64,000 nucleotides of DNA from an uncultured Gammaproteobacteria bacterium (GTDB lineage: Bacteria; Patescibacteriota; Microgenomatia; Levybacterales; UBA12049): contig CAZCYO010000001.1 of the NCBI GenBank assembly GCA_964503265.1, positions 226,064-290,063 on the forward strand, read 5' to 3'. Positions 857 to 21,922 of the stretch are shown one piece after another (within the stretch, counting starts at the first letter, position 1; each line of letters begins with the position of its first letter). The notes beneath the pieces are model-generated. The model did not search any database, was not told where the DNA came from, and worked only from the letters and a program-made list of their open reading frames with translations. The position numbers and the translations under genes were made by a program.

Positions 857-948
857 GTGAATAATATGAATGAATTATACGTAAGGACCTCTTATATGTA
901 AACATGCATCTTGTTCTATACTTTACATTTTTATGTATTTCTAATAAG

Positions 949-2022
949 ATGAGCAATATGAAAAAAACACTTATAGTAACCGGGGGATGTGGATTTATTG
1001 GAACCAATATTTGTTTATTGGCAATTAAAAAAGGATATCATGTTGTTGCATTTGATTCTTTTATTCGCCCGCATACTGAAGAGAATGCTGTTATCCTCAA
1101 AGAGTCAGGTGTCGAGATTATCAGGGGAGATGTACGAAGTGAACACGATTTCGAGAGACTACCCAAAAAAGCAAATGGGATTATCCATCTGGCTGCAAAT
1201 CCTGGTATACCATGGTCTATTAAGTGGCCAATGTATGATTTTTCTGTAAACGCTATGGGTACTCTCAACGTATTGGAATTTGCTCGCAAAAACAACTTAA
1301 TTCCAGTTATATTTGCATCAACCAATAAAGTTTACTCAGAAGAAATAAATCTTATTCCAGTTAAAGAAGAAAAAACTAGACATGTCTGGAATTTTGAAAA
1401 AAATGTAAAACCGCCACTGCGAAGCTCAGTTCTTGAAGGTCTTACAGAAAAAGGAGTAAATGAAAATTTCCCTATGGATAGCGCTGGAAAATTCCCACAT
1501 AGTCCTTATGGAGTATCTAAAGCAACAGGGGATCTATATTGTCAAGAATATTATCATATGTATGGTGTTCCGACGGTTGTCAATAGAATGTCTTGTATTT
1601 ATGGTCTATATCAAAAAGGAGTTGAAGATCAGGGTTGGACTGATTGGTTTGTTCAAGCGAAAATACATAATAGGCCACTCAATATTTATGGAGATGGAAA
1701 ACAGGTAAGAGATTGTTTATTTGGTGGAGATGTGGCTGAGTTATATTTATTAGAATTAGAAATGATCGAGAAAGTTAAAGGACAGATTTTTAATGTCGGA
1801 GGTGGAATAACGAATACCATCAGCCTTCTTGAAACAATTACTTACTTAAATGAAAAAGGTGGCAAGCCACTATCTTTATCCTTTAAACCATGGCGCCCTG
1901 CAGATCAAAAGATTTATATCTCTGATATCAGTAAAGTTAAAAAAGCAACAGGTTGGAAACCAAAAACATCAATTGTAGATGGGCTTGATCAAATTTGGAA
2001 TCAATATAATGATAAAAAGTAA
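949..2022 (+). CDS. NAD-dependent sugar epimerase/dehydratase, SDR family, CDP-paratose/tyvelose 2-epimerase-like.
   Basis: Rossmann motif KTLIVTGGCGFIGTN, catalytic YGVSK (YxxxK), length about 360 aa. Start trimmed to MSNMKK just before the Rossmann fold. Confidence 0.75.
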   Translation: MSNMKKTLIVTGGCGFIGTNICLLAIKKGYHVVAFDSFIRPHTEENAVILKESGVEIIRGDVRSEHDFERLPKKANGIIHLAANPGIPWSIKWPMYDFSVNAMGTLNVLEFARKNNLIPVIFASTNKVYSEEINLIPVKEEKTRHVWNFEKNVKPPLRSSVLEGLTEKGVNENFPMDSAGKFPHSPYGVSKATGDLYCQEYYHMYGVPTVVNRMSCIYGLYQKGVEDQGWTDWFVQAKIHNRPLNIYGDGKQVRDCLFGGDVAELYLLELEMIEKVKGQIFNVGGGITNTISLLETITYLNEKGGKPLSLSFKPWRPADQKIYISDISKVKKATGWKPKTSIVDGLDQIWNQYNDKK

Positions 2023-2729
2023 CCCAAATACTTTTTTTTAATTCCATAAAAATACCATCGAATATAATAGCGGATATTACTTTTTAAGGTAAACTGTGAA
2101 GTACCATGCATTCTATCCTGCCATGTAGTTGGTACTTCTGTTATTCTATATCCTAAGTTATAGGCTTTTACTGCTAACTCTAGTGGCATTTCAAACCCTT
2201 CCTTACTTTCGATTTGTATATCTTTCATCACTTTTTTTCTAAAACATTTATATGCGTTTGTTGCATCATTTGTCGGTATTCCTGTTAAAGTCCTCAGTGT
2301 TAGACAACCGAGCCGTGAGAGTAGTCCTTTTATAAGTGGTCCTCCTATATGTTTTCCATCTTTCATATAGCGAGAGGCACAGACGAGATCATATCCTTCA
2401 TTAATTTTTGATACCATTTTATCAATATCTCGTGGATCATCTGATAAATCGGCCATCGATATAACAATAATCTCTGATTTTGCATAATCAATACCAGTTT
2501 TAAGTGCTTTTAACATGCCTTTTCCATCTTTGGTGAAGATGATTGTTAGATTGCTAACGTTATTTTTAATTTTAGTAAGTACTTTGATTGTCGGATCTTT
2601 TTTATCCTGAAGGACAATTATAATTATATGAGGAGTCTTTACATATTTCTCAATACCATTTATTACTTGCTCAATATTTTTCTCTTCATGATAGGTTGGG
2701 AGGATAATTGTAATGGCATTTTTTGTCAT
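2001..2729 (-). CDS. GT2 glycosyltransferase, polyprenol-phosphate sugar transferase (DPM1/ArnC-like).
   Basis: ITIILPTYHEEKNIEQV N-terminal GT-A motif, DLSDDP (DxD-type), about 240 aa, no TM domain. Confidence 0.75.
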   Translation of the reverse strand: MTKNAITIILPTYHEEKNIEQVINGIEKYVKTPHIIIIVLQDKKDPTIKVLTKIKNNVSNLTIIFTKDGKGMLKALKTGIDYAKSEIIVISMADLSDDPRDIDKMVSKINEGYDLVCASRYMKDGKHIGGPLIKGLLSRLGCLTLRTLTGIPTNDATNAYKCFRKKVMKDIQIESKEGFEMPLELAVKAYNLGYRITEVPTTWQDRMHGTSQFTLKSNIRYYIRWYFYGIKKKYLGYFLSLY

Positions 2730-2819
2730 AAAGGCCTCAATTATATGTAATAAATCACAGGAATACAAACTCTTAATACGATGTGTATACTGTATGCAGT
2801 ATTATTTTATAATGAGTAA

Positions 2820-4328
2820 ATGAAAAAATCAGAAAAGGTACTAATTAAGTATAAAAATATACTGACAAAAAATCTTAGTATTGAAAAAATAATCTTTGCA
2901 GCGTGTTCAAGTGTTATTTTCTTTATTCTTCTTTACTTTTATACACACGGTTTTATTCCACATGATGAAGGTTGGATTATTAATCCAGCAGCGCGAATTT
3001 TATATGGAGATATTCCATATCGAGATTTTCATTACATTTATACTCCTGGGGTTGCATATAGTAATGCATTAGTATTTAAATTGTTTGGCATTAGTATTCT
3101 AACTTCTCGTATTTTCACGATGGGAATTGCGTTATTAACAGTGCTTCTTTTTTATAAGATTTCTCTCTCTATTTCTGATAAGCGATACTATTCACTTCTT
3201 CCTATCTCAATTTATCTTACTTGGGGGCCGATGCATATTAATTTCGCATGGCCGATTATCTATACAATTTTTAGTGGATTACTTTGTATTTATCTTCTCT
3301 TAGTTGCAAAGGAAAAAGAAAAAGTTTCTTATTTTTTCTTTGCAGGTGTTGCAGCTGGTCTTACAATCCTTTTTAAACAAAATTTTGGCGCCGCACTGCT
3401 ATGTAACATCATTCTATTTTTTATACTAACTAAGGAGGTTAGGAAAGTGCAATACTTAACTTCTCTTATCGGTGGTGTACTTATTCTCCCGGTTATCATG
3501 TGTATTTATTTTATGATGAACCAGGCATTTATTCCTTTTATTCAAGATATGTACTTTTTTATGATTGATCAAATCTATCTAAAAGGAATGCAAAAAACTC
3601 AATTTATTTACCCGGATATATGGTACAAGCAAATTGCTAAAACATTCTTCTATCTGATACCTCTTATTGTTTCTGGGTATGCAAGTATTATCAGTGTTAA
3701 ATACAATAAATCATTTCTCTTTCTTTCTGGAATGTGCTTCTGGTATTACCTATTTGGTATCCGTCCAACAACTGATTATGTCCATTTAACTGGTCTTATG
3801 GCTTTAATTGGGATACCAATTATTCAAATACTTGTAAGTGATGTTAAACAAATTGTTAAAATAACTCTTTTATTACTTACTGGAATACTTGTTGTGGTTG
3901 GAATATATACCTCTCTTTTCCGAAACTATTATAGATGGGATACACCACTTATATATCAAAATAATTTTATAGAAAACCCCACTGTTCGAATTTCAACAGA
4001 TGCGATTTATATGAAGGTTATTCCTGAAGTGTCGAATTATATAAAAAGTACTACATCACAAAATGATCCGATATTTATCTATACTTTCTCACCTTCTTTT
4101 TATCTCATAACCAATAGGAGAAACCCTACTAAATATATTTTTGCACCCCCACAACTTCTTTCTTTAAACGATCAGGAAGAAATAGTAAAAAACCTTATAG
4201 ATAATAATGTAAAACTTATTTTGGCTGATATTCGACTACAAGATGATCATTCATTTTTATCTCGGTATATTCAGAAACATTATAAAGAAGTGAAGCATGT
4301 GAACAACTATACCTTTTGGAAAAAATAA
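2820..4328 (+). CDS. Polytopic membrane protein, GT-C-fold glycosyltransferase-like (PMT/ArnT-like).
   Basis: More than 10 predicted hydrophobic helices. The first extracytoplasmic loop carries PHDEGW...YGDIPYRDF, an acidic DE motif typical of GT-C enzymes. Confidence 0.5.
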   Translation: MKKSEKVLIKYKNILTKNLSIEKIIFAACSSVIFFILLYFYTHGFIPHDEGWIINPAARILYGDIPYRDFHYIYTPGVAYSNALVFKLFGISILTSRIFTMGIALLTVLLFYKISLSISDKRYYSLLPISIYLTWGPMHINFAWPIIYTIFSGLLCIYLLLVAKEKEKVSYFFFAGVAAGLTILFKQNFGAALLCNIILFFILTKEVRKVQYLTSLIGGVLILPVIMCIYFMMNQAFIPFIQDMYFFMIDQIYLKGMQKTQFIYPDIWYKQIAKTFFYLIPLIVSGYASIISVKYNKSFLFLSGMCFWYYLFGIRPTTDYVHLTGLMALIGIPIIQILVSDVKQIVKITLLLLTGILVVVGIYTSLFRNYYRWDTPLIYQNNFIENPTVRISTDAIYMKVIPEVSNYIKSTTSQNDPIFIYTFSPSFYLITNRRNPTKYIFAPPQLLSLNDQEEIVKNLIDNNVKLILADIRLQDDHSFLSRYIQKHYKEVKHVNNYTFWKK

Positions 4329-4387
4329 CTCATTAACATTACAAAGAATATGATAGAATTGGCCTACAATTCAGCCAAATTAATTCT

Positions 4388-6937
4388 ATGATATCTCCCA
4401 AATTTTCATTTGTTACAACGGTTTATAACGAAGAGAAGACTATTGAGAAATTTCTTGACTCTCTTTTCTTTCAAACTAAAAAAGTTGATGAAATTATTAT
4501 CGTAGATGGAGGAAGCACAGATACTACAGTAGAAAAAATCAAGTTTCAAACCACAAGATTCAAGAAAAAGAATATATCATTTAATTTTTTTGTCAAAAAA
4601 GGAAATAGATCAGTCGGAAGAAATGAAGCGATAAAGCATACAAGTGGTGATATTATTCTTTGCTCTGATGCTGGAAATATTTTAGATAAAAAATGGGTGG
4701 AAAATATTATAAAACCATTTTCTGACGAATCTGTAGATGTCGTAGCGGGATATTATAAAGGAAAAGCATCTAATACTTTTCAGAAATGTTTAATTCCATA
4801 TGTCCTTGTAATGCCAGACAAAGTTGATGAATCTACATTTCTTCCTGCAACACGCTCAGTTGCGTTCACGAAAGCTATATGGAAAAAAGTAGGGAAGTTC
4901 CCAGAAGAATTTAGTCATAACGAAGATTATGTTTTTGCTAATAAACTAAAAGAGAAAAAAGCAAATATGGTATTTGCTCGCGATGCGATTGTATATTGGA
5001 TTCCAAGAAATACCTGGAATGAAGTGTTTGTTATGTTCTTTCGGTTTGCGTATGGAGATACTGAATCGAACATAATTCGAACGAATGTTTTACTTCTTTT
5101 TGCAAGATATTTTCTGGGAGTGTATCTTATTTTTCTTACAATTCTTTATAAGAGTTTATTTGGTATGTTGCTTTTAATTTGCATCATTTTGGTATATGGC
5201 ATTTGGTCAATAACAAAAAATTATCGATATGTGAAAAAAAATAAAGCCCTCTATTTACTTCCATCCATGCAGGTTGTTGCTGATGCAGCTGTTATAAGTG
5301 GGACATCAGTAGCGTGTGTTCGAATACTATTACGGTACAACTATATTTCTTTTGCAAAACGGAATATATTTCTCCTTTTAATGATAAGTATTTATTCATT
5401 TTTGATGATCCTAACGATTCACTCGGGAGCTCCAAATAGTAATCATCCGTACCCTTATAACATGGATGAATGGCACCAGTTACAAGCGGTGCGTGAGACC
5501 TTTATTAAAGGCACTCCAAATACGGCAGGTGCTGCAAATGGAACAATGTTTCACTTTTTCCTATCAGGTTTATATCTAACTCCTTTTGTATTGAGTAAAT
5601 ATATTAGCGTTACAAACATGACGGTTTTTGACTTAGAAATGAGGAGTAAAGTATTTGAGGTTCTACGATTTAGCACAATACTTTGGGGAGTCTTGTCACT
5701 ATTTATGCTTAATAAAATTATTGATTTAACCGGAGCAGCTAAAAAAATAACATTATTCCTTTTTACATTTTGTCCATTATGGTTGAGTTTAAGTGGCTAT
5801 TTTAAATACGATATTGGATTGATGTTTTGGCTACTAGCTGCAGTATATACGCTTATTTATTTTGCAAAAAATCCCACCAATAGAAATTTTATTATTGCAG
5901 CAATCCCATCAGCCCTCTCTTTTGCTGTTAAAGTAAGTGCGATTCCACTTTTCCCAATATTCATAATTTCTTTTTTCTGGTTTCACCCTACATGGAAGCA
6001 GAACATAAAATATTTATTCATTGGAATTTTTATCTATTTAAGTATAACTATTCTCTTTGGAATGCCTGACACGCTATTTGGGAAAGGGAATATTATAGAT
6101 TATTTAATAAATAATATTCTTCAAACGCCAACGACGACAGATAACATTACTTTCGGTATAAATCCATGGGTATATCTTTTCGTTCGTCATTACCCAATTA
6201 TATTTGGACCAGGACTTATCGTAACATTTATTATCTCCCTGTATGTTATTTTATATAATACTCTTAAAGAAGGTCTAAAAAAACATAGCATTGATTTATT
6301 TCTAGTTGTTATGTGTATAGCCTTTATTGCGAGTATCTTACCCTTACAGATTTTGGGAGGAGGGAACAGGAGTTTAGTGATGTTACCGTTTTTTGCATTG
6401 ATTAGTGGGATTGGAATCAATGTGTTAATAAAGCGTAAAAAAAATATAGTATTAGTTGTTTGTTTCATTTTACTAGTTTTTTTTACCCAAGCTTACTACT
6501 CATTTGCTATCGTTTATTTAAAATCAATTCCGTCTCCACAAGAGAATTCCTCATATTGGCTTACTAAACATATTCAGCATCGAGCAATGATAGGACTAGA
6601 AAATATACCAATTTATCAAAATATCCCAGATTTACTGCAAAAAGAATTTTATTTTACTCAATCAAAAGGAGGAAAGAATAATATATTTAATTATGTCGTT
6701 ATTGATAGTAAATCAATAAAACTACCTCCTGTTGTTGTTATAACAAATGATAATATCGAAGAGAAATATATTAAAGCATCTCCTAAAAAAGATTTGATTT
6801 CGCGCTTAAAAAAAGAAAACTACGTTGTTGTTGCTAGGTTTTATCCAGATATTCGCTTTTTAGGACTGAACGATCTTGACTATTCTTTCTCTGCTCTCAT
6901 ACCTTCTCCTTATGTAACATCGGTGTATATTAAATGA
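4388..6937 (+). CDS. Fusion protein: N-terminal GT2 glycosyltransferase, large polytopic GT-C-like membrane domain, C-terminal soluble domain.
   Basis: N-terminus FSFVTTVYNEEKTIEKFL...IIIVDGGSTDTT (GT2). Residues about 230-700 are hydrophobic multi-TM with an MDEW motif. The C-terminal about 150 aa is soluble. 849 aa. Confidence 0.7.
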   Translation: MISPKFSFVTTVYNEEKTIEKFLDSLFFQTKKVDEIIIVDGGSTDTTVEKIKFQTTRFKKKNISFNFFVKKGNRSVGRNEAIKHTSGDIILCSDAGNILDKKWVENIIKPFSDESVDVVAGYYKGKASNTFQKCLIPYVLVMPDKVDESTFLPATRSVAFTKAIWKKVGKFPEEFSHNEDYVFANKLKEKKANMVFARDAIVYWIPRNTWNEVFVMFFRFAYGDTESNIIRTNVLLLFARYFLGVYLIFLTILYKSLFGMLLLICIILVYGIWSITKNYRYVKKNKALYLLPSMQVVADAAVISGTSVACVRILLRYNYISFAKRNIFLLLMISIYSFLMILTIHSGAPNSNHPYPYNMDEWHQLQAVRETFIKGTPNTAGAANGTMFHFFLSGLYLTPFVLSKYISVTNMTVFDLEMRSKVFEVLRFSTILWGVLSLFMLNKIIDLTGAAKKITLFLFTFCPLWLSLSGYFKYDIGLMFWLLAAVYTLIYFAKNPTNRNFIIAAIPSALSFAVKVSAIPLFPIFIISFFWFHPTWKQNIKYLFIGIFIYLSITILFGMPDTLFGKGNIIDYLINNILQTPTTTDNITFGINPWVYLFVRHYPIIFGPGLIVTFIISLYVILYNTLKEGLKKHSIDLFLVVMCIAFIASILPLQILGGGNRSLVMLPFFALISGIGINVLIKRKKNIVLVVCFILLVFFTQAYYSFAIVYLKSIPSPQENSSYWLTKHIQHRAMIGLENIPIYQNIPDLLQKEFYFTQSKGGKNNIFNYVVIDSKSIKLPPVVVITNDNIEEKYIKASPKKDLISRLKKENYVVVARFYPDIRFLGLNDLDYSFSALIPSPYVTSVYIK

Positions 6938-6958
6938 CTCAGCTGATATACTAATTGT

Positions 6959-8200
6959 ATGGGTTATAAATCAAATGCACTAAAAGGTGTTTCATGGATT
7001 ACCTTACTTCGAGGTCTCACAAGAATTGTAACGATTCTCCGTCTTTCTGTATTAGGAAGACTTCTTACACCGGCTGAATTTGGATTTTTCGGTATCGCCT
7101 CACTCCTTCTTTCGCTTCTTGAAATACTTACTGAAACTGGAATAAATGTGTTTTTAGTCCAGGAAAAAAAAGATTTAAAAGAATATATTAATTCTGCCTG
7201 GATTGTTTCCCTTCTGCGAGGAATTATTCTGACAATAGTTATTATTCTTACGGCTCCTATTATTACAAGTTTTTTCAATTCTCCTGAGGCGTTAAATATC
7301 ATATTACTTATTTCTATCGTTCCATTTATTCGAGGGTTTATTAACCCTGAAATAATTACGTATCAAAAAGACTTATCTTTTGATAAAGAATTTCGACTAC
7401 GATTCGTGTTATTTCTAGTTGATGTAGGTGTCTCAATTACTGTAGGGTTTATAACTCGGAGCGCTGAAAGTTTCGTATGGGGATTAATTGCATCTGCGCT
7501 CATTGAGGTGATTCTTTCTTATGTTCTTTTCCCTCTAAGACCAAAGCTTAAAGGCGAACTGGAACAGATAAAACTTATTTTAAGACGGGGATTTTGGGTA
7601 ACGGTAACGGGTATATTTTCTTATTTCGCGGATAATGGAGATAATATTACTGTTGGTAAGTTGTTGGGATCTGGATCACTTGGTATTTATCAAATTGCAT
7701 ATAAATTTTCTACACTTCCAATCAGCGAAATAACCAACGTCGTAAATCAAGTTATTTTCCCTGTATATACCAAGTTTCATAATGATAGAGAGAGATTGAT
7801 AAAAGCTTTTATAAAAGTAACTTTCGCTAGTTCACTAGTCGGAATTGTTTTAGGTAGTGGAATCTTTTTACTTGCTCAACCTATTATTCTTATTTTTATG
7901 GGTGTACAATGGGTAGCTGCTGTTCCCGTGATACAAGTTCTCTCGATTTACGGTATATTGAGAACCATTTTTGGAAGTTTTTCACCTCTTTTTCTTGCTG
8001 TGGGAAAGCAAGATTTTGTGGCTCGAATGCTCTTTTTCCGTGTTGTGACACTATTAGTTAGTATTGTGCCACTAGTTCAGATGTATGGGATGATAGGTGC
8101 TGCATATGCAATGGTTCTTTCAGTACTCATTGAGATACCTATCATCATATTTCTTACCCGTTCTGTTTTTCAAAAGCATAATTTCCCCTCTCCCGCTTAA
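6959..8200 (+). CDS. Polysaccharide biosynthesis protein, Wzx-like flippase (MOP superfamily).
   Basis: 413 aa, about 12 hydrophobic helices, typical flippase architecture. Lies inside the glycosyltransferase cluster. Confidence 0.6.
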   Translation: MGYKSNALKGVSWITLLRGLTRIVTILRLSVLGRLLTPAEFGFFGIASLLLSLLEILTETGINVFLVQEKKDLKEYINSAWIVSLLRGIILTIVIILTAPIITSFFNSPEALNIILLISIVPFIRGFINPEIITYQKDLSFDKEFRLRFVLFLVDVGVSITVGFITRSAESFVWGLIASALIEVILSYVLFPLRPKLKGELEQIKLILRRGFWVTVTGIFSYFADNGDNITVGKLLGSGSLGIYQIAYKFSTLPISEITNVVNQVIFPVYTKFHNDRERLIKAFIKVTFASSLVGIVLGSGIFLLAQPIILIFMGVQWVAAVPVIQVLSIYGILRTIFGSFSPLFLAVGKQDFVARMLFFRVVTLLVSIVPLVQMYGMIGAAYAMVLSVLIEIPIIIFLTRSVFQKHNFPSPA

Positions 8201-8237
8201 GTTAGAATGTTTATGCTTGCTCTGTGTTTAACTAAGT

Positions 8238-13024: not shown

Positions 13025-13027
13025 CAG

Positions 13028-13789
13028 ATGAACACATCAGTTATAATTATAACGAAAAACGAAGAAAAGAATATCGAAGAGTGTATTAAAACACTTGAAG
13101 GATACGATGAAATTATTGTGGTAGATGATAATTCATCGGATGCAACTGCAAAAATTGCTAAAAAACTTGGTGCCCAAGTATATGAGCATTCACTTGAGGG
13201 TGATTTTGCCGCCCAGCGGAATTTTGGGCTACAGAAAGCGAAAGGATCATGGATTCTTTTTATTGATGCAGACGAACGGATGAGCCCACAGCTTAATTAC
13301 GAAATTCATAGTCAGATTAATGATGCTATGAGTATTTACAGTGGGTTTTATATTCGGCGAATTGATAAAATGTGGGGAAAGACTATAACACATGGTGAAA
13401 GTAGTCAAACGAAATTTCTACGACTTGCTAAAAAGGGAAGTGGAGACTGGATAGGAATGGTGCACGAGCGATGGATGGTAAACGGAAAAGTTGGGATGCT
13501 TAAACATCCACTCATGCATTTTCCCCATCAAACGATTCGTGAATTTGTTACTGAGATTAATTATTATACTGATTTAAGAGCAGGGGAACTTAATGATAGA
13601 AAAGTAAAAGTTCGAAGACGTGATATTTTCCTTTTTCCATTAGGTAAATTTATTCAAAACTATTTTTTTCGATTAGGAATACTCGATGGGTTAATTGGAT
13701 TACTTCAAGCGATTCTCATGAGTTTTCATTCGTTTTTAGTTCGAGGTAAGCTTTGGTTGCTACAAAATAAAAACTATGAGCAGCTATAA
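13028..13789 (+). CDS. GT2 glycosyltransferase (LPS-core-type, WaaE/KdtX-like).
   Basis: SVIIITKNEEKNIEECIKTL...IIVVDDNSSD, FIDADE (DxD). Confidence 0.75.
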   Translation: MNTSVIIITKNEEKNIEECIKTLEGYDEIIVVDDNSSDATAKIAKKLGAQVYEHSLEGDFAAQRNFGLQKAKGSWILFIDADERMSPQLNYEIHSQINDAMSIYSGFYIRRIDKMWGKTITHGESSQTKFLRLAKKGSGDWIGMVHERWMVNGKVGMLKHPLMHFPHQTIREFVTEINYYTDLRAGELNDRKVKVRRRDIFLFPLGKFIQNYFFRLGILDGLIGLLQAILMSFHSFLVRGKLWLLQNKNYEQL

Positions 13790-14483
13790 AGGGCTACCAA
13801 CACTTGAAGTACTTGAAGGAGCTTGGAGATATAATACTTGGATATCTGAAGCCATACTTCCACATCTTCACAGTCCTATCCTTGAGGTTGGGGCTGGGAC
13901 CGGAAATATAAGTTCAATAGTATTGCGGCATCACTCTCTGTATGTTTCAGATGTAGATGAATATCTTGTAAATACACTAAAAAAGAAACTATCAAAAAAT
14001 GGAAATGTTAATTGTGAAAAACTAGATATAACAAAAAATAATTCCCGTTTCACTAATTATTTTTCTTCACTTTACGCAATTAATGTACTTGAACATATAG
14101 ACGACGATTTACAAGCTTTAAAAAACATGTATAGTCTACTTAATGATGGTGGTACTTTGGTGATACTTGTTCCAGCAAAACAAAATGTATATTCTCGACT
14201 TGATAAGGTACTTGGGCACTATCGAAGATATGAAAAAGAAGGATTGAAAATAAAAGTAGAAGAAGCAGGCTTTATAGTAAAAAAAATATATTTTTTTAAT
14301 TTTCTTGGTCTTATTAGCTGGAGAATTCGTGATCTCTTTGATAAGAGATCTATTCATCTATCTTCTACGCAGATAGCATTATTTGATACACTTGTGCCGT
14401 TATTAAAAAGAGTTGAAAAATATTTTCATATTCCAATCGGAATTTCACTAATTGTTGTTGCGAGGAAGCCGAATGAAAAATAA
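13776..14483 (+). CDS. Class I SAM-dependent methyltransferase.
   Basis: ILEVGAGTGNISS glycine-rich motif I. Overlaps the upstream GT2 gene by 14 nt. Confidence 0.75.
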   Translation: MSSYKGLPTLEVLEGAWRYNTWISEAILPHLHSPILEVGAGTGNISSIVLRHHSLYVSDVDEYLVNTLKKKLSKNGNVNCEKLDITKNNSRFTNYFSSLYAINVLEHIDDDLQALKNMYSLLNDGGTLVILVPAKQNVYSRLDKVLGHYRRYEKEGLKIKVEEAGFIVKKIYFFNFLGLISWRIRDLFDKRSIHLSSTQIALFDTLVPLLKRVEKYFHIPIGISLIVVARKPNEK

Positions 14484-14582
14484 GGGTATAATCATTTTTC
14501 TTATTTGGAGCATCAGTATCTTTTTTTTATATTTCTTTTTTCTTTTCCAGCGTAATATTAGTTCTATAACTACTATTTTAAA

Positions 14583-16322
14583 ATGAAAAATATTTGGTTT
14601 AAAATATTTATTTCTTGTATATTTTTTCTTGGACTATCAACGTATCTCACGTATCCTCTTATTTTTCATTTCACTGATAGTGTAACTAGTCTCGGTGATG
14701 AGCTTCTTATAATATGGATACAAAACTGGGTAATTCACTCATTGCAAACAAATATATGGGGAATTTTTCAAGCAAATATATTTTATCCTTATCATAATTC
14801 TCTAGCATTTTCTGAGACATTTATTACCACAAGTGTATTAGCATATCTCCCATATCTGTTAACTAAGCAGCCGGTAATTACCTTGAATTTCACACTTTTT
14901 ACGTCGACATTTCTTTTTGGTTTTTCTGTTTACTTACTCTGTTTTTATGTGACAAAAAAGAATGCTATTGCATTGGTATGTGGAACACTGGCTATATGCT
15001 CACCAGTGGTGTTAGACAAATCAGTACACTTGCAAGTACTTTCAATTTCGTTTGTACTATTTGCATTACTGGCATACATAGCATTCCTAAAGCGTAAAAA
15101 GATTTCCTATTTTCTTTTATTTCTTTTCTTTTTTCTTTTACAAGTCTATAACAGTTTTTTACCTGGTTACTTTATTATTTGTAGTTCAGTTATTCTAACG
15201 TATTTTTTTGTTCAATATAAGAAAGCTTCGATTACTATTTTTTGGAATAAATACATTGTTATTTCTACTCTATTTTGTGTAATGCTTTGTCTGCCAGTTA
15301 TAGTCCCATACTATCAAGTATCAAAAGAATTTAATTTTGTTCGTGATATCCGAGAATCGATTCATTTGGGACTTCAGCCTGAAGATCTTCTTTATGGGAG
15401 TCAGTATACTCGATTAGCTCCTTTTCTCACGAAGAATTTGAGTTTCTTACATCAATCAACTATTGAACTAAAAAATGGATATTTGGGGGTAGTATTGACG
15501 CTGTTAAGTATTATAGCAGTAGGGTATGGATGTAAAAAATGGAAAAAAAAGGACCCGCTGTCAAATGGGTTTCTCTCGATTGCCTTATTTGGGTTGATAT
15601 TAAGTTTCGGCCCATTTCTCCATCTTGGAAGACACACAATTCATACACCCTTTCCAATTCCTCTTCCTTACGCTCTATTTTATGCTCTTGCACCAGGTTT
15701 TAAAGGATTTCGAAATGCAGCTCGATGGGAAATGTTATTTGTTATAGGGATCACTGTCGTTATCGCAATTATGCTTTCAGATTTTCTCAAAAACAAAACT
15801 AAAATAGTTGTATGTATCATTCTTTTTAGTTTATTAGTAGGAACTGTTATTGAATATGATTTTCCTAGGCATCTTCAGCCTATCCCTTCAATTCCAAAAG
15901 TAAACCAATGGCTTACAACGAGATTAGATACGAGTGTTGTAATAGAAATGCCGATATATGCATGGTATATGCATCCATATGCAACTCAGGAGCTGTTTAG
16001 AGATTATTATTCAGTCTCGAACTTTCTTCCGTTAGTAAATGGTGCCAGTGGGTATTCACCAATTCCTTGGGAAAAAAACTCCAAGCAACTGATGATAGAA
16101 TTTCCCTATGAGCCTTCGTTTGTTAGAATGAAAAAAATTGGTATAAATTATATTATTTTTCATAAAAATGAATTTGACATGCTTAATAAAAATAATTTCA
16201 TGATTGATAGTAAACGAATAGATGATGGAGAAACAATACTCAATCAGCTAAAAAATAATAGAAATGTTACCTTAGTGAAAGAATTCCCTGGTGATTATGT
16301 TTTCAAAATAAATTATGATTAG
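14583..16322 (+). CDS. Polytopic membrane protein with C-terminal soluble domain, GT-C-like.
   Basis: About 400 aa hydrophobic N-terminal region with an LGDELL acidic loop motif. About 150 aa soluble C-terminus. Confidence 0.45.
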   Translation: MKNIWFKIFISCIFFLGLSTYLTYPLIFHFTDSVTSLGDELLIIWIQNWVIHSLQTNIWGIFQANIFYPYHNSLAFSETFITTSVLAYLPYLLTKQPVITLNFTLFTSTFLFGFSVYLLCFYVTKKNAIALVCGTLAICSPVVLDKSVHLQVLSISFVLFALLAYIAFLKRKKISYFLLFLFFFLLQVYNSFLPGYFIICSSVILTYFFVQYKKASITIFWNKYIVISTLFCVMLCLPVIVPYYQVSKEFNFVRDIRESIHLGLQPEDLLYGSQYTRLAPFLTKNLSFLHQSTIELKNGYLGVVLTLLSIIAVGYGCKKWKKKDPLSNGFLSIALFGLILSFGPFLHLGRHTIHTPFPIPLPYALFYALAPGFKGFRNAARWEMLFVIGITVVIAIMLSDFLKNKTKIVVCIILFSLLVGTVIEYDFPRHLQPIPSIPKVNQWLTTRLDTSVVIEMPIYAWYMHPYATQELFRDYYSVSNFLPLVNGASGYSPIPWEKNSKQLMIEFPYEPSFVRMKKIGINYIIFHKNEFDMLNKNNFMIDSKRIDDGETILNQLKNNRNVTLVKEFPGDYVFKINYD

Positions 16323-17916
16323 TGCTGCAATTCTAATAGGTATTTATGCATATAGCATTTTTTTTCTTGGAATTGCAAAAGTTCTAACATCATTTACTAT
16401 TGGCATAGTTACAATAGTATTTGTTTCTATTCTTTTAGCTCTCTTTCTAAAAAAGAGAAGAGATTTTTCTTTCTCGTTTCAACAGTTCGATACTACAAAT
16501 CTAATTGTATTACTAATTCTCTTGTTACAAGCTGTTTTTAATCTTATCGGTGCGTTGGGTCCTGAATATTCATTTGATGCGCTGTGGTATCATTTAATGC
16601 TTCCGAAATTGTATCTTACGCATCATGCCATATACCATGTTCCTGGTGGCTTACTCTATTATTCCGACATGCCAAAACTAGGAGAGATGCTGTTTGTAGC
16701 TGCGCTAACTTTTCATACTGAAATACTCGCTAAGCTTATTCAATTTTCTTTCGGAGTCCTAATTTCTGTTCTCATATATCAAACTTCACGAAAATACTTC
16801 TCTTACTTCATATCACTTCTTGTCGTGCTATTGTTTTATGGAAATCTAGTTGTTGCTTGGGAATCCACAGTAGCGTACATAGATCTTATCAGAACATTTT
16901 ATGAATTTTTTTCATTACTTATTTTTCTAACATGGGTTAAAGAATCAAAAGATCGTTACTTGTATTTGAGTGGAGTGATACTTGGGTTTGCAATTTGTAC
17001 AAAACTTCTTTCTCTTAGTTCACTAGTTATTCTTAGCGGTATGGTTCTCTTTTTTGTAGGTAAGCAGAGAAAAGAAATAGCAATAAAAAAAATGATTTAT
17101 TTTTTGTTTTCTGCACTAATTATTCCTCTCCCTTGGTTTGTTTTTTCTTTTATAAATACGCACAATCCAGTATACCCATTTTTTACTCCTCTCTATCCTA
17201 CTCACGTTTCATGGACTCTTTTACATCCTTTTATTTTTTTTCGGGATATAGTTCAGATTTTTACTCAAGCTGCCGATCCTATTTCACCAGTTTATTTAGT
17301 TGTTCTGCCTTTTTTGTTATTTTATCCTTCTTTTCGAAAAGAAATCAAGATTATTGCAATTTATAGTTTGGGGTCGATTATTCTTTGGTATATCACACCA
17401 CGAACAGGTGGGGGAAGATTCATGCTGCCTTATTTACCAGGTTTTTCTCTGATTGTAGGTGAAATACTTTTCATTCTCTCAAAAGATAAAAAGTATAATT
17501 TCTATCGTATTGCGATTACAGGAATGATTATTTGTATCTCCGTAAGCACACTTATCTATAGAGGAGTTGCCAGTGCTAAATATTTTCCATATCTGTTAGG
17601 AAAAGAGTCGAAGCAATCGTTTCTTGTTAATCATTTGAATTTTTCTTTTGGGGATTTTTTAGATATCGATGGGAAAATACAAAAAATGCTACTACCTACT
17701 GATGTCGTGTTACTTATTGGTTTTCATAATCTTTATTACGTAGATTTTCCATTTATTGACATGTCATATATTCGCAATGGTGATAGGTTCACCTATATCG
17801 CTACACAATATGCATCTCTTCCGCTTAACTATACCAACGCACAGAAGGTCTACGAAGAAAAAAAGACAGGGGTTGTACTCTATCGAGTTGGAGAAGAAAC
17901 ATGGAAAAGCGAATAA
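16315..17916 (+). CDS. Polytopic membrane protein, GT-C-like (GT39/ArnT-like).
   Basis: 533 aa, more than 10 TM helices. In operon with the other GT-C-like genes. Confidence 0.45.
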   Translation: MISAAILIGIYAYSIFFLGIAKVLTSFTIGIVTIVFVSILLALFLKKRRDFSFSFQQFDTTNLIVLLILLLQAVFNLIGALGPEYSFDALWYHLMLPKLYLTHHAIYHVPGGLLYYSDMPKLGEMLFVAALTFHTEILAKLIQFSFGVLISVLIYQTSRKYFSYFISLLVVLLFYGNLVVAWESTVAYIDLIRTFYEFFSLLIFLTWVKESKDRYLYLSGVILGFAICTKLLSLSSLVILSGMVLFFVGKQRKEIAIKKMIYFLFSALIIPLPWFVFSFINTHNPVYPFFTPLYPTHVSWTLLHPFIFFRDIVQIFTQAADPISPVYLVVLPFLLFYPSFRKEIKIIAIYSLGSIILWYITPRTGGGRFMLPYLPGFSLIVGEILFILSKDKKYNFYRIAITGMIICISVSTLIYRGVASAKYFPYLLGKESKQSFLVNHLNFSFGDFLDIDGKIQKMLLPTDVVLLIGFHNLYYVDFPFIDMSYIRNGDRFTYIATQYASLPLNYTNAQKVYEEKKTGVVLYRVGEETWKSE

Positions 17917-19016
17917 AAATAATACTCTATTTAATTGCAATTTTACTAGCGCTTATCGTTAGTAAAGTATTTTTTCAAGATTCCTATTTGGACTTCCGAG
18001 TGTATTATGAAGCTGCTATAAATACATTACAGTATGGTGATCCTTACTCCACGACAGATCCAAACATGTCGTATTTATACCCTCCTTTAACAATTATTCT
18101 TTTTTTACCTCTTACTGTTTTTTCTGTGACGAGTGCAGAAAAAATATGGCTTGTTTTATCAATACTTCTTTTAATTATTTCATTATGGATACTATTTAAA
18201 TTACTTCGTATTTCGTGGAGATCTTATGAGGGACTAGCGTATAGTATATGCTGTTTAGTTTTTTTTCCATTTAAATTCACACTTGGCATGGGACAAATCA
18301 ATATCGTTATTCTTTTTTTTCTTATTCTTTTTTTATATTTCTATGAAAAACAGAAAACATTGTCAGGATTATTTTTAACAGTCGCTATTTTTATCAAAAT
18401 CTCACCCCTTCTATTTCTTGGCGAACTTTTTCTGAGAAAACAGTGGAATATCCTGTTTGGGGTGGTGATCACGGCACTTTGTTTAAGTATTATGTCACTC
18501 TTTATGTTTCCACTTCCGACTGCATATTATGTTTCTTCGATCCTTCCGAGTATTTCACAAGCTTGGCCAACTGCATATTTCAATCAATCACTTACCGGAT
18601 TTTTAGGGAGATTGCCTGTTATGGCATATATGCTTATTATCGCTCGTAGCCTAATTGTTTTAGGAGTACTTGTTATAACAAGTGTGATAGTTAAAAAATA
18701 TGAAAAAGAACGAAATCAACTGCTTGTACTGAGTAGTATCTTTCCAGTACTTTTGATTATTAGTAGCTTTTCATGGCAACATCATTTTATCCTGCTTATC
18801 CCGTCTTATATTATTCTGAGTCATGTGGTCGTTTGCCGTAACGTATTTAATCGCCAAACTATAGTAATTCTCATAAGTATTTTGATAAGTTATCTTTTAG
18901 TTGGGTATAATATAAAGCAACCTGAACTCATGCCCGTACTAGTACAGTCACATGTCTTTTATGGAACCGTAATGCTATGGATAGTGCATTTGTATGTTAT
19001 TCAGAAAGAGTTATGA
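17901..19016 (+). CDS. Polytopic membrane protein, GT87/DUF2029-like mannosyltransferase family.
   Basis: 371 aa, multi-TM, size and hydropathy typical of DUF2029 proteins. Confidence 0.4.
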   Translation: MEKRIKIILYLIAILLALIVSKVFFQDSYLDFRVYYEAAINTLQYGDPYSTTDPNMSYLYPPLTIILFLPLTVFSVTSAEKIWLVLSILLLIISLWILFKLLRISWRSYEGLAYSICCLVFFPFKFTLGMGQINIVILFFLILFLYFYEKQKTLSGLFLTVAIFIKISPLLFLGELFLRKQWNILFGVVITALCLSIMSLFMFPLPTAYYVSSILPSISQAWPTAYFNQSLTGFLGRLPVMAYMLIIARSLIVLGVLVITSVIVKKYEKERNQLLVLSSIFPVLLIISSFSWQHHFILLIPSYIILSHVVVCRNVFNRQTIVILISILISYLLVGYNIKQPELMPVLVQSHVFYGTVMLWIVHLYVIQKEL

Positions 19017-20221
19017 AAAAAATACTTCTTACTTGTTTACTCATAAGTTTCATAGGGGGCGAAGTGACTCGTTTTACTATTTTTAGTAATATTTCTTTTC
19101 GATTACTTGATGTCATTGCACTGTGTATATTCTTAGCATGTATCTTTGAAAATGTTCGTTCAATCTCTAAAAAAAATGTATTTAATTTCACAGCAGCTAA
19201 ATGGTTAGGCGGATTTTTTATAATTGGAATCTTATCGCTTCTTTTTAATCTTCCTAATTTCCCTATTTCTGAGGTTGGTGAAGGATTACTCTATCTGATG
19301 CGACTTGTACTGTATAGTGGCATCTTCTTTTATCTAAAGGATATAAGGAAAGATGAACAATCATACGTAGTTACAGGTATTACGATTACCGGAAGTATAT
19401 TAGTGGTCTTCGGGTTTATCCAGTATTTTTATTATAACAATCTTCGCAATGTGTATTATCTTGGGTGGGATGATCATATGTATCGCATCTTTTCAGTATT
19501 TTTAGATCCTAATTTTACTGGTATGCTTTTTTCACTTTTTGCTCTTTTTCTGATGGGAAGAATTTGGTCGAAACGAAAAGATTCGCAGAAAAATGGTATA
19601 TATTTATTGGTGTGTATACTTGCCGTTACACTTGTGGCTGTCGTAATGACGTTTTCACGAAGTGCACTGATTTCACTTGGAACTGGGAGTATCATCTTTT
19701 TATCGCTAATTGGTAGAAAGAAATATTTTCTTTATTTACTATTAGTACTTGGTGGAATGATAGTTTTGACAATTCCATTCTTTTATATTGAAAATGTAAA
19801 TTTGTTTCGATCAGCATCCAGTGAAGCCCGAATTGAATCAGCACGAAATGCGATTAGTATTAGTAAAGATCATCTTTTAACAGGAGTTGGGTTCAATACC
19901 TACCGCTATGTACAGGTAAAATATGGGTTTAGGCAGGGAATAGGAGCTGAAGTGAGTCATGCAGATAGTGGCACTGATAATAGTTATCTTTTTATTCTCG
20001 CAACGACAGGAATAGGGGGACTTATTGTGTATATTGGTTTTTTGCGTTCACTTTTTCAAATGTCGTGGAATGCGTATAAAGAGAAAAGATCTATTTTTGC
20101 TATCGTTTTTATTGCGTCACTCTCAAGTGTGCTTATTGATAGTTTATTTATCAACAGCTTGTTTTATCCGTTTATTATTGTATGGCTCTGGATGCTCGTA
20201 GGACTCATTAATTATAGTTGA
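19013..20221 (+). CDS. O-antigen ligase/polymerase family protein (Wzy_C-like).
   Basis: TFSRSALISLGTG motif typical of the O-antigen ligase family. Multi-TM. ATGA start/stop overlap with the upstream gene. Confidence 0.65.
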   Translation: MKKILLTCLLISFIGGEVTRFTIFSNISFRLLDVIALCIFLACIFENVRSISKKNVFNFTAAKWLGGFFIIGILSLLFNLPNFPISEVGEGLLYLMRLVLYSGIFFYLKDIRKDEQSYVVTGITITGSILVVFGFIQYFYYNNLRNVYYLGWDDHMYRIFSVFLDPNFTGMLFSLFALFLMGRIWSKRKDSQKNGIYLLVCILAVTLVAVVMTFSRSALISLGTGSIIFLSLIGRKKYFLYLLLVLGGMIVLTIPFFYIENVNLFRSASSEARIESARNAISISKDHLLTGVGFNTYRYVQVKYGFRQGIGAEVSHADSGTDNSYLFILATTGIGGLIVYIGFLRSLFQMSWNAYKEKRSIFAIVFIASLSSVLIDSLFINSLFYPFIIVWLWMLVGLINYS

Positions 20222-20915
20222 TATGAATGGTTTGCTGTTTCGTGTTTCCTGCCATGTCTGTGGCCACTACAGAGATATCGTTGCCACCGTCGTGGAGTGG
20301 GAGATTGTAAGAATACCCACCATTGCTATCCATCACTGCTTGAAAGCCATTTACTTTTACTTGTGCGTTTATATCGGTTTTGCCTCGTACGGTGATTGAC
20401 CTATTATCTTTAAATGTTGCGCCGTCACTTGGATAGTCTATAGAAAGGCTTGGTTCTTTATTTGAGTATAGTACGTGGGTGATCTCAGAATCTTTACTCT
20501 GTTTATTTTTCTTCGTATCTTTCGCAATTACTTTTAGAGCGTTGTCTCCGTCTTTGAGGTGTACATTACGGAATTGAAATGTTCCGTTATCTTTTGAAGA
20601 CATTTCTTCAAGAAATGTATCATTATTATATAAACGGATAGTATATGAGCCAGTACTAGATCCACTAACGGTAATCGTTGCACTATTTGTCGCACTAAAT
20701 AGGGGATCAATCGATGGAGGGGCGATAAAAGTAGTAGCATCTGTCTGTGCCTCGATATTTGTATCACTGTGAGAGAGCGCGCTTCCGAGCTTTATGATAG
20801 CAGGAACACCAAAAAATATGAGAAGGAGAATAATTGCGATAGACCCGAGAATACTAAGAATGATAGTATGCATCGATTTTTCTTGGAGTTGACGGTTAAT
20901 TCGTGATCGAGCCAT
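20208..20915 (-). CDS. Membrane-anchored surface protein with Ig-like beta domains.
   Basis: N-terminal TM anchor (IILSILGSIAIILLLIFF) followed by a Thr/Ser/Asn-rich region typical of bacterial Ig-like folds. Confidence 0.4.
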   Translation of the reverse strand: MARSRINRQLQEKSMHTIILSILGSIAIILLLIFFGVPAIIKLGSALSHSDTNIEAQTDATTFIAPPSIDPLFSATNSATITVSGSSTGSYTIRLYNNDTFLEEMSSKDNGTFQFRNVHLKDGDNALKVIAKDTKKNKQSKDSEITHVLYSNKEPSLSIDYPSDGATFKDNRSITVRGKTDINAQVKVNGFQAVMDSNGGYSYNLPLHDGGNDISVVATDMAGNTKQQTIHINYN

Positions 20916-20957
20916 ATGTGTAGAATAAAGAATTATGAATTAAGAATCAAGTATGTG

Positions 20958-21029
20958 AGCCGAAGGTGGGATTCGGACCCACGACTTGCTCTTTACGAAA
21001 GAGCTACTCTACCCCTGAGTTACTCCGGC
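20958..21029 (-). tRNA. tRNA-Thr (anticodon CGT).
   Basis: Cloverleaf folded by eye: acceptor GCCGGAG/CTTCGGC, D-arm, anticodon stem GCTCT/AGAGC with loop TTCGTAA, T-arm GTGGG-TCCGAAT-CCCAC, discriminator U. Confidence 0.8.
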
Positions 21030-21300
21030 ACAGGTGTTATTTTAGGAGATTTTACACATGGAAGCAATACTCGAGAAAATAATCGTCTCATAGTTTGATT
21101 ATACAAAAATAATTTAGTATACTCTCGTAGTCTTTTAGGAAAGAATCATAATTGCATGATCTCTTTGCTATTAGTGCATTTTTTAGCACATTAATAGTTT
21201 TTGCGAACAAATTATCTACTTGGACGAGGTGATAGGTGAGTAATTCATTACTTTTCTTTCTTCTCGTCCAAGTTGGACGAACACAAAAAAGGAGGAGTCG

Positions 21301-21666: not shown

Positions 21667-21684
21667 AGGTTCAGGAGGTATACT

Positions 21685-21891
21685 ATGGTGGAAGACGTCC
21701 GATATGACTTGGCAGGTCTCGAAGAGATCTGTCATAGCATCTTCCGAGGTCACAATCAGGTTATTCTTCTGGCTGAAAACTATTCTGGTCGCGAGCTGGA
21801 AGCAGTTATGCGGCGACTCAAGGAGGCTACCGGGAAGAACTATACCTATGAATGGGAGCCCGGAAAGCGCATCGAAGTTCGGTGCACATAG
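21685..21891 (+). CDS. Hypothetical small protein (GC-rich islet 1, ORF 2).
   Basis: AGGAGG SD 8 nt upstream. 68 aa. GC-rich codons. Confidence 0.5.
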   Translation: MVEDVRYDLAGLEEICHSIFRGHNQVILLAENYSGRELEAVMRRLKEATGKNYTYEWEPGKRIEVRCT

Positions 21892-21922
21892 TACTTACAT
21901 GCCGAAAGGCAAGGAGGAGGTC

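Follow-up and report, generated by a model that had tools for sequence, protein, structure and literature searches.

Which glycan would a bacterium build with seven different membrane-embedded glycosyltransferases, and where would it be assembled? The question is raised by a locus at the start of a 64,000-nucleotide stretch of DNA (the window; contig CAZCYO010000001.1 of GenBank assembly GCA_964503265.1, positions 226,064 to 290,063), deposited under the name of an uncultured Gammaproteobacteria bacterium. Window positions 1-20915 are coding sequence nearly without gaps and hold 16 glycan-biosynthesis genes, as judged from the list of open reading frames (ORFs), Pfam and NCBIfam. Within 20 kb, seven glycosyltransferase domains of the GT-C class, five of them stand-alone and two fused to glycosyltransferase family 2 (GT2) domains, are found together with five domains of the GT-A or GT-B class, which bears out the unusual richness in GT-C relative to soluble enzymes claimed in a first-pass annotation of the sequence. 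That annotation had counted at least seven GT-C-like proteins; seven domains are indeed present, but the number is reached only by counting both GT2 fusions. The reading preferred here, with a probability of roughly 0.55, is that the locus directs biosynthesis of an envelope glycan, namely a wall- or lipid-linked glycopolymer assembled by a Wzx flippase and a Wzy_C-domain protein and elaborated outside the membrane by the GT-C enzymes.

Assignment of the membrane proteins to the GT-C fold

GT-C enzymes draw sugars from polyprenyl-phosphate carriers at the outer face of the membrane, and acidic residues just past the first transmembrane (TM) helix are their catalytic signature. The locus encodes nine polytopic proteins, counting Wzx and the Wzy_C protein, and a hydropathy scan gave 7-13 TM segments for each of those assigned to GT-C (about eight or more for TM3). 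The PMT_2 threshold of Pfam (26.1 bits) was passed by two stand-alone proteins, TM3 (2820-4328, plus strand, 502 amino acids (aa); 34.9 bits) and TM12 (16315-17916, plus strand; 28.5 bits). A third, encoded at 17901-19016 on the plus strand, matched the Pfam family GT87 with 108.7 bits (cut-off 25) and is of the type of PimE, a polyprenyl-phosphate-mannose-dependent mannosyltransferase. It is a member of GT87 but probably not a PimE orthologue, since its score lies far above the Pfam cut-off and far below that of the PimE equivalog (NCBIfam PRK13375, 64 versus 413 bits).

The C-terminal domains of the two fusion proteins, both recognised as fusions in the first-pass annotation, fell just under the PMT_2 threshold. 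These are GT2_TM4 (4388-6937, plus strand, 849 aa; GT2 82 bits, PMT_2 23.8 bits) and GT2_TM7 (9382-11655, plus strand, 757 aa; GT2 67 bits, PMT_2 25.6 bits). Both domains were aligned with their homologues from related loci (54 loci, obtained by scanning a single genome of each species for relatives of TM11) and subjected to profile-profile comparison (hhalign). The domain of GT2_TM4 matched the TM12 family with a probability of 97.6% (E 2.7e-12) and the TM8 family with 92.4%; that of GT2_TM7 matched the same families with 96.7% (E 3.5e-10) and 95.2%, respectively.

The remaining two proteins are TM8 (11645-13024, minus strand, 459 aa, or 448 aa from the called start) and TM11 (14583-16322, plus strand), which carries a C-terminal globular domain. 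Neither has a Pfam hit of its own. TM11 had no NCBIfam hit either and TM8 only a weak match to the LA_3751/LA_3752 family (40.5 bits versus a cut-off of 200), while PF13231 was found in 16 homologues of TM8. Searches of the PDB by sequence and by profile with TM8, TM11 and the Wzy_C family returned nothing, and matches were obtained only by comparison of folds. AlphaFold2 models of TM8 and TM11, built from alignments of 48-49 sequences, had mean confidence scores (pLDDT) of 94.0 and 89.5, respectively, and both are helical bundles with 11-13 long helices. Comparison with the PDB using Foldseek matched TM8 to ALG12, STT3, AftA, PglB, Pmt4, ArnT and EmbA (E down to 8e-5) and TM11 to DPY19 (2e-8), yeast and human STT3 (3.5e-8), AglB, PglB, AftD and AftA, in both cases with TM-scores of about 0.5. 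The significant matches of the two models are GT-C enzymes exclusively.

These models decide against a reading that takes the majority of the polytopic proteins for transporters or permeases rather than glycosyltransferases. Although TM8 and TM11 are without a Pfam hit of their own, as that reading would have it, they fold confidently as GT-C proteins, and members of the major facilitator superfamily and other transporters match them with a Foldseek probability of about 0.1 and a TM-score of about 0.1. The other polytopic domains match PMT_2 or GT87 directly or via profiles, and the sole transporter is Wzx. The transporter reading, which had been named beforehand as one that would overturn the GT-C proposal, is refuted by the structural matches and retains a negligible probability.

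Acidic residues in the first external loop are invariant or nearly so in the family alignments: D39/E40 in TM11, D33 in TM8, D42/D52 in the C-terminal domain of GT2_TM7, E84/D88 in TM12 and D10/E11 in the C-terminal domain of GT2_TM4. The corresponding motifs are GDE (TM11), YGDG (TM8), DEWH (GT2_TM4) and GD...RD (GT2_TM7); those of TM3 (HDEG, after the first TM helix) and of the GT87 protein (FQDSYLD) were read from single sequences. Based on profiles, motifs and models, all seven domains are assigned to the GT-C fold superfamily. An all-against-all BLASTP comparison of the locus proteins revealed no recent paralogy among the membrane proteins, and the seven domains therefore represent seven different enzymes; tandem duplication as the origin of these proteins is ruled out by the same comparison. 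The seven enzymes probably add sugars outside the cell membrane, in line with the extensive extracytoplasmic glycosylation that had been predicted for the locus.

The GT2 enzymes and donor supply

A donor of the type that GT-C enzymes use could be supplied by GT2a, a soluble GT2 encoded at 2001-2768 on the minus strand (255 aa as read, with a probable start at 2729 that gives 242 aa). Its best matches in the PDB are the dolichol-phosphate-mannose synthase (DPMS) of Pyrococcus (5mlz, E 1.8e-20), GtrB (5ekp, 7e-14) and ArnC (2e-9), and in NCBIfam it matches AglJ, PgfS, a Dol-P-hexose transferase, ArnC and PpgS, each under its cut-off. No TM segment was found in the hydropathy scan, and the C-terminal TM helices of GtrB are missing. 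GT2a is a candidate polyprenyl-phosphate-sugar (donor) synthase of the DPMS/GtrB/ArnC family.

In a metagenome-assembled genome (MAG) of the Levyibacteriota, a 749-aa protein (L037:1122-3368, minus strand) joins an orthologue of GT2a (36% identity, E 7e-53) to a GT-C domain like that of TM8 (hhalign 95.6% to the TM8 type). As the donor synthase and the GT-C domain are joined in one polypeptide, they are taken to be functionally linked, and the fusion protein could produce a lipid-phosphate sugar and also use it up. The support for lipid-phosphate sugars as donors of the GT-C domains consists of the presence of the DPMS-like GT2 and this fusion.

The GT2 domains of GT2_TM4 and GT2_TM7 are of another kind. 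In GT2_TM4 a cytoplasmic GT2 domain at the N-terminus is followed by TM helices and then by a C-terminal GT-C domain in which the DEWH loop motif is invariant; the GT2 part of this protein is nearest to TarS, GalT1 and PcManGT-type enzymes. The GT2 domain of GT2_TM7 is WbbL/GlfT1-like; the fusion architecture (PF00535 + PF13231) is found in about 110 of its 120 best homologues, whereas about eight relatives encode its halves separately. A role of the fused GT2 domains as DPMS-like donor synthases was ruled out, as they resemble GT2s of the TarS, GalT1, chondroitin synthase and heparosan synthase types.

The other stand-alone GT2, GT2b (13028-13789, plus strand, 253 aa; GT2 86 bits), is a small enzyme with a C-terminal hydrophobic helix and has its best PDB matches in GmaR (1.6e-19) and SunS (2e-7). 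It is present in at least 27 related loci, always just upstream of TM11. Both fused GT2 domains and GT2b look like glycan-extending GT2s. Three stand-alone GT2 enzymes had been expected from the first-pass annotation; only GT2a and GT2b are in the window. The single family 4 glycosyltransferase (GT4) was annotated correctly, and is a cytoplasmic GT-B-fold enzyme encoded at 8238-9389 on the plus strand (Glycos_transf_1, 76 bits).

The TM11 family

The closest folds to TM11 are those of STT3/AglB/PglB (GT66) and DPY19 (GT98). Like these, TM11 has a GT-C_A membrane domain, an extracytoplasmic C-terminal globular domain, which weakly matches that of AglB in Foldseek, and an acidic motif in the first external loop. 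Unlike these, it shares only about 10% identity with them at a TM-score of about 0.5, has no STT3 match in Pfam and lacks the WWDXG motif; the same holds for its 48 homologues, which gave no STT3 hit and in which WWDXG is missing from the family consensus. The likeness of the modelled protein to oligosaccharyltransferases is thus one at the level of the fold only. Comparison with the TM12 family gave an hhalign probability of only 34%, which sets TM11 apart as a separate GT-C family.

At E <= 1e-3 the TM11 family comprises 16,255 representative clusters, and at E <= 1e-30 it comprises 2,331, most of which lack Pfam coverage; it is a very large GT-C family without any characterised member. Some TM11 homologues have Pfam matches to DUF6311 or DUF7657 only, and these are weak. 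Many members are 700-1000 aa long with additional C-terminal regions, and ten distant members that were sampled had nearly no Pfam coverage, with weak hits to PTPS_related, PMT_2 and DUF6541 only.

Homologues of TM11 outside the syntenic cluster occur in two other contexts. In L014 (about positions 1-9000; also L017, by matching ORF sizes) the TM11 homologue adjoins a type IV pilus operon, which encodes a PilB ATPase as well as several pilin-like proteins with a single TM segment. In L025 (about 8500-16300; also L031 and L046, by matching ORF sizes) a membrane protein with immunoglobulin (Ig)-like/fn3 domains is encoded directly upstream of the TM11 homologue, and an amine oxidase and two PMT_2 proteins downstream of it.

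Flippase, Wzy_C protein and Ig-like protein

Both membrane components of a Wzx/Wzy-dependent pathway, a MOP-family Wzx flippase and a Wzy-type protein, are present, as had been annotated. The flippase (6959-8200, plus strand) matched Polysacc_synt_3 with 233 bits and, in NCBIfam, the MOP flippase (185 bits) and TuaB (158 bits) models, both under their cut-offs; from this homology it would move a lipid-linked oligosaccharide. The Wzy_C protein (18977-20221, plus strand; Wzy_C 57.3 bits, cut-off 31.7), for which 26 homologues were aligned, had been described as O-antigen-ligase-like and may act as polymerase, as ligase or as O-oligosaccharyltransferase.

The last gene of the locus (20208-20915, minus strand) encodes the Ig-domain surface protein of the first-pass annotation. 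It has an N-terminal membrane anchor, a serine/threonine (S/T)-rich linker and two Ig-like domains (Glucodextran_B 81.5 bits, Big_6, Big_13), and homologues lie beside Wzy_C in 26 related loci. The gene is on the strand of the ATP synthase operon, opposite to Wzy_C, so its tie to the locus is one of conserved adjacency only. Its identity with PamR, the Pam-pilus anchor in the candidate phyla radiation (CPR), was considered and rejected, as it scores 32 bits against an NCBIfam cut-off of 300 and its anchor is N-terminal and not C-terminal; PamR has two FnIII domains and a C-terminal TM helix (bioRxiv 10.64898/2026.03.03.709456).

Host lineage and conservation of the locus

The MAGs in which homologues of TM8, TM11 and GT2_TM7 occur go by the names Levybacteria/Levyibacteriota, Microgenomates or Patescibacteria, and the AtpD encoded in the window is 80-90% identical to AtpD of Levyibacteriota, Microgenomates and Patescibacteria MAGs. 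On these comparisons the host is a bacterium of the Levyibacteriota (Patescibacteria), which are monoderm. The Gram-positive-like envelope proposed earlier agrees with this placement, and also with the MurT encoded in the window. The MurT ligase gene (39127-40410; MurT_C, Mur_ligase_M) is followed by an ORF of 253 aa in the place of GatD (window 38369-40410), an arrangement that fits a predicted amidation of lipid II as in Gram-positive bacteria. For many records with a cluster and an ATP synthase operon of the Levyibacteriota type, the title reads 'uncultured Gammaproteobacteria', 'Negativicutes' or 'Pseudomonadales' (L002, L004, L010, L013, L014, L016, L017 and others), and the submitters' taxonomic labels of these MAGs appear unreliable.

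The order GT2_TM7 (or its C-terminal half alone), GT2b, (methyltransferase), TM11, TM12, (GT87), Wzy_C and Ig-like gene (minus strand), in which brackets mark genes that are not always present, was found in 27 of the 54 loci, and in most of these 27 atpC, atpD, atpG and atpA come directly after. The core genes of these 27 species-level relatives are 40-50% identical to those of the window; TM12 homologues, in the same range of identity, are present in at least 26 loci, the GT87 counterpart in about 12 and a counterpart of the methyltransferase between GT2b and TM11 in about 10. The recurrence of the core beside the ATP synthase operon indicates that the locus is typical of the lineage and not an acquired island, and a core conserved in this way most likely makes a standard component of the envelope. 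The part upstream of the core differs between species in its GT4s, methyltransferases, nucleotidyltransferases, DegT aminotransferases, HAD phosphatases and acetyltransferases, and may be variable as in the serotype-variable polysaccharide loci. Further polytopic proteins are encoded there as well.

Full-length clusters of the relatives encode 4-9 polytopic proteins and three short, truncated loci 2-3, which places the window locus with its nine at the top of the range and not beyond it. Among 35 polytopic proteins of relatives that had not yet been classed as GT-C, 16 matched PMT_2, three PMT, two were TMEM260-like, one was a YfhO and one a PTPS_related protein, for the most part families of the GT-C type; only two were flippases, two acyltransferases and one an EpsG-type polymerase. 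Richness in GT-C enzymes is a trait of the lineage or phylum and not peculiar to this genome. In one relative (L043:1-16300) the cluster is broken into many short ORFs, with TM11, TM12, GT87, GT2b and the Ig-like gene all split, which is suggestive of frameshifts introduced by long-read assembly or of a locus in decay.

Sugar-tailoring genes, upstream extension and flanks

The genes for nucleotide-sugar tailoring comprise an epimerase and two methyltransferases. The epimerase (904-2022, plus strand; Pfam Epimerase 146 bits) is a short-chain dehydrogenase/reductase (SDR) of the CDP-tyvelose/CDP-hexose 2-epimerase type, in agreement with its first description. Its best PDB matches are the CDP-tyvelose 2-epimerases 9rl0 (E 2.5e-67) and 1orr (E 3.4e-61), the next best has an E-value of 1e-32, and GalE and RmlB are far behind. 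The two class I S-adenosylmethionine methyltransferases had also been identified correctly. The one encoded from 857 down to 1 on the minus strand (NCBIfam UbiG-like, 65.8 bits) has an N-terminal CxxC...CxxC zinc ribbon, read straight from the sequence; the window edge removes its C-terminus, and its full length is 289 aa on a matching Logan contig (L056:7168-8037). The other, at 13776-14483 on the plus strand (Methyltransf_12/11/25/23), lies between GT2b and TM11. Reading frames overlap by 8 nucleotides between TM11 and TM12, 16 between TM12 and GT87 and 40 between GT87 and Wzy_C. Scans for promoters and terminators gave no excess over shuffled sequence, and operons were not defined by them.

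The first-pass annotation had placed the start of the locus at position 857; it in fact runs off the start of the window and extends at least 7 kb further upstream. On a contig of the Logan assembly whose sequence is that of the window over 14.3 kb, the glycan locus goes on for at least 7.2 kb before position 1 (L056:1-7181; G+C 0.32). This part also encodes a sugar C-methyltransferase (Methyltransf_13/14), an RmlD-like reductase, a UDP-GlcNAc 2-epimerase, another SDR and another GT2, so that more epimerases and a C-methyltransferase are added to the tailoring set. It further encodes a 659-aa protein with about ten TM segments and a soluble C-terminal domain, which had no Pfam hit and gave hhalign probabilities of 71% to the TM8 family over 96 columns and 1-10% to the others. 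This protein is translationally coupled to a 137-aa four-TM protein (L056:4776-5189) without a GtrA match. Locus proteins were found on the Logan contig SRR12487046_6869.

At the downstream edge of the locus lies a tRNA-Thr(CGU) gene (20957-21029, minus strand; ARAGORN and Rfam). Between it and atpC (window 21030-22395) there are three small plus-strand ORFs at 21301-21666 (121 aa), 21685-21891 (68 aa) and 21923-22201 (92 aa), each with a strong GGAGG ribosome-binding site in front of it; they have a G+C of 0.48 compared with 0.40 for the genome, and no Pfam hits. As the Ig-like gene directly precedes atpC in most relatives, these ORFs look like a small insertion. The remaining window is occupied by housekeeping genes for the F-type ATP synthase, DnaE, GatA/B, MurT, CTP synthase, pyruvate kinase, UvrB, enolase and pyruvate phosphate dikinase, and a GGDEF-domain protein (33501-34487), a possible diguanylate cyclase, is encoded between dnaE and gatB.

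Discussion

The classes of the enzymes are given by homology and fold, and from these we infer donors, order of steps, acceptor and product as follows. In the cytoplasm, tailored sugars and the GT4 and GT2 domains would build a short lipid-linked oligosaccharide, which the Wzx flippase would carry across the membrane and the Wzy_C protein would polymerise or ligate to an acceptor. GT2a would make polyprenyl-phosphate monosaccharides, the donor half for the GT-C enzymes, and each GT-C enzyme would use lipid-phosphate sugars at the outer face of the membrane for a particular branch or extension. GT2_TM7, GT2b, TM11, TM12 and Wzy_C would carry out the conserved core steps, with the upstream part varying like serotype genes, and the product would be a wall-linked or lipid-anchored glycopolymer typical of the lineage.

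Several observations weigh against this proposal. Neither an initiating phosphoglycosyltransferase nor a chain-length regulator was found among the 16 window genes with Pfam and NCBIfam (these may be encoded elsewhere), nor was a wall ligase of the LCP type in the window's locus, and none of the three is among the 25 commonest families of the relatives' clusters. A small four-TM flippase of the GtrA/GtcA type was found neither in window 1-21000 nor in the upstream 137-aa ORF. There is one clear lipid-phosphate-sugar synthase only for seven GT-C domains, the GT2 domains of both fusions resembling glycan-extending GT2s and not DPMS. Finally, the closest folds to TM11 (DPY19, STT3) and the closest solved relatives of GT2b (GmaR, SunS) are enzymes that glycosylate proteins or peptides.

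The last point leads to the main rival, in which a lipid-linked glycan is moved to surface proteins such as pilins, an S-layer protein or the S/T-rich Ig-like protein. Transfer would be by Wzy_C acting as an O-oligosaccharyltransferase of the PglL/PilO type, in which Wzy_C domains also occur, or by TM11 as an oligosaccharyltransferase- or DPY19-like enzyme, and PMT_2-type enzymes would O-glycosylate serine or threonine directly or extend protein-bound glycans. TM11, with its best structural matches in DPY19 and STT3/AglB/PglB and its weakly AglB-like C-terminal domain, would suit such a role, but it is without the WWDXG motif and an STT3 Pfam match, and the ranking by Foldseek among GT-C_A enzymes at TM-scores of about 0.5 cannot tell acceptors apart. 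The proximity of GT2b to the flagellin O-GlcNAc transferase GmaR and to SunS, and the weak similarity of GT2a to AglJ and PgfS, point in the same direction. So does gene context, as the anchored Ig-like protein with its S/T-rich linker is kept beside Wzy_C in 26 loci, an Ig-like/fn3 protein directly precedes the TM11 homologue and two PMT_2 genes follow it in L025, L031 and L046, and the TM11 homologue borders the type IV pilus operon in L014 and L017. On the other hand, the window's locus contains no pilin or S-layer gene, and its Ig-like gene lies downstream of the atp operon and is read from the opposite strand. For protein O-mannosylation as it is known, a single PMT is enough and seven different GT-C enzymes are not required, and seven distinct GT-C enzymes exceed any known protein-glycosylation system. 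Protein glycosylation is regarded as a possible but less probable function than the envelope glycopolymer.

A second alternative concerns the origin of the locus, which could be a strain-specific, O-antigen- or capsule-like island recently acquired at the tRNA-Thr, its foreign source explaining the low G+C. The G+C of the locus is 0.31-0.35 compared with about 0.40 in the rest of the window, G+C at third codon positions (GC3) is 0.25 compared with 0.31 (p = 1.5e-4), the tRNA-Thr lies at the downstream edge and upstream gene content differs between relatives. The core, however, has the same order and the same chromosomal position beside atpC in 27 species-level relatives, and the ORF list revealed neither an integrase nor a repeat boundary. 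A dip in G+C was present in the cluster of all 18 relatives examined, with small and inconsistent differences in GC3; as a cause of the low G+C of the core, horizontal transfer was rejected on this ground, and the dip, being common to these relatives, is taken to reflect mainly protein composition and a long-standing property of the cluster. For the core, recent acquisition is largely refuted and altogether improbable.

Among known systems, the nearest functional counterparts of the locus are the multi-component glycosylation systems of Gram-positive walls and the mycobacterial arabinogalactan/LAM machinery. Multi-component extracytoplasmic glycosylation by GT2 and GT-C enzymes is established for wall polymers of Gram-positive bacteria, where a GT2 of the GtrB/CsbB type, a GtrA/GtcA flippase and a GT-C enzyme such as YfhO, GtlB or CsdB/D/F form a three-component system (PMC8035078, PMC11127046). 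The locus shares with these systems a GT2 of the DPMS/GtrB family (GT2a) and polytopic GT-C enzymes in a monoderm envelope, and the same logic of a lipid-phosphate sugar made inside the cell and used outside would apply. It differs in having seven GT-C domains instead of one GT-C enzyme per system, two of them fused to GT2 domains, and in the lack of a detectable GtrA/GtcA-family flippase and of the GtrB C-terminal TM helices in GT2a. Its GT-C genes are also the conserved core of the locus and not accessory modifiers of side chains.

In mycobacteria and corynebacteria, the assembly of arabinogalactan, lipomannan and lipoarabinomannan (LAM) involves Ppm1, PimE and MptC (GT87), EmbA/B/C, AftA-D and Rv3779. 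Many GT-C enzymes of the mycobacterial arabinogalactan/LAM machinery, GT87 members included, use polyprenyl-phosphate sugars (see PMC7341804 for EmbB). The present locus resembles this machinery in that many different, partly clustered GT-C enzymes would lengthen an envelope glycan and add branches to it outside the membrane, and in its GT87 member, its Ppm1/DPMS-like GT2 and its Foldseek matches to AftA, AftD and EmbA/B. By contrast, no membership of the Emb or Aft families was seen at the sequence level, genes for a decaprenyl-phospho-arabinose pathway were not seen, Wzx and Wzy_C are present, and the host is of an unrelated phylum with a small genome.

The teichuronic acid operon tuaA-H of Bacillus subtilis offers another likeness, as the flippase resembles TuaB (158 bits), the Wzy_C protein would take a TuaE-like role and the GT2 and GT4 enzymes are weakly similar to TuaG and TuaC. 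The NCBIfam scores are nevertheless far below the equivalog cut-offs, a TuaA-type initiating transferase and a TuaF-type regulator were not found, and the tua operon, unlike this locus, has no GT-C enzymes. Protein glycosylation by the Pgf system of Streptococcus mutans employs the GT2 PgfS, the epimerase PgfE and the membrane proteins PgfM1 and PgfM2. Positions 904-4328 encode a set of the same make-up, with an SDR epimerase, a DPMS-like GT2 and a PMT_2-type membrane protein, and GT2a matches the PgfS model; its score, however, is 53 bits against a cut-off of 500, and the SDR is of the CDP-hexose 2-epimerase and not the UDP-4-epimerase type.

What is new in comparison with the known systems is the combination of seven GT-C domains in one cluster, two conserved GT2-GT-C fusions, the Wzx/Wzy_C framework and the TM11 family. 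The folds are all known ones, and precedents exist for the logic of the pathway; known biology is extended by the finding and not overturned. Full-text searches for literature linking Patescibacteria, Microgenomates or Levybacteria to GT-C, GT39, GT83, GT87, ArnT or mannosyltransferases found nothing relevant.

The locus bears on a group of bacteria whose envelope chemistry is almost unknown. Patescibacteria (CPR) are epibiotic and genome-reduced, and their surface is where they meet hosts and phages. At least 20 kb of a small genome is given to a locus with seven different membrane glycosyltransferases, and the position of its core is maintained throughout the phylum; this points to a major, conserved glycoconjugate of the surface and shows which genes could be targeted. 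With the TM11 family and the GT2-PMT_2 fusions, the locus provides well-modelled representatives of GT-C families without a characterised member, and the donor-synthase fusion of L037 is useful for assigning pairs of donors and transferases. Tentatively, it may be proposed that the Levyibacteriota, and perhaps the wider Microgenomates, have an envelope glycopolymer or lipoglycan that defines the lineage and is built for the most part outside the cytoplasm, by means of a conserved and chromosomally fixed 'assembly line' of GT-C enzymes that are unrelated to each other and encoded beside the ATP synthase operon. If so, this assembly line would be an independent counterpart, in an ultrasmall monoderm, of the mycobacterial arabinomannan/arabinogalactan machinery, and would include GT2-GT-C fusions, one donor-synthase-GT-C fusion joining the inner and outer half-reactions, and the oligosaccharyltransferase/DPY19-like TM11 family. 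The value of the locus would lie mainly in giving an entry to the envelope chemistry of the CPR.

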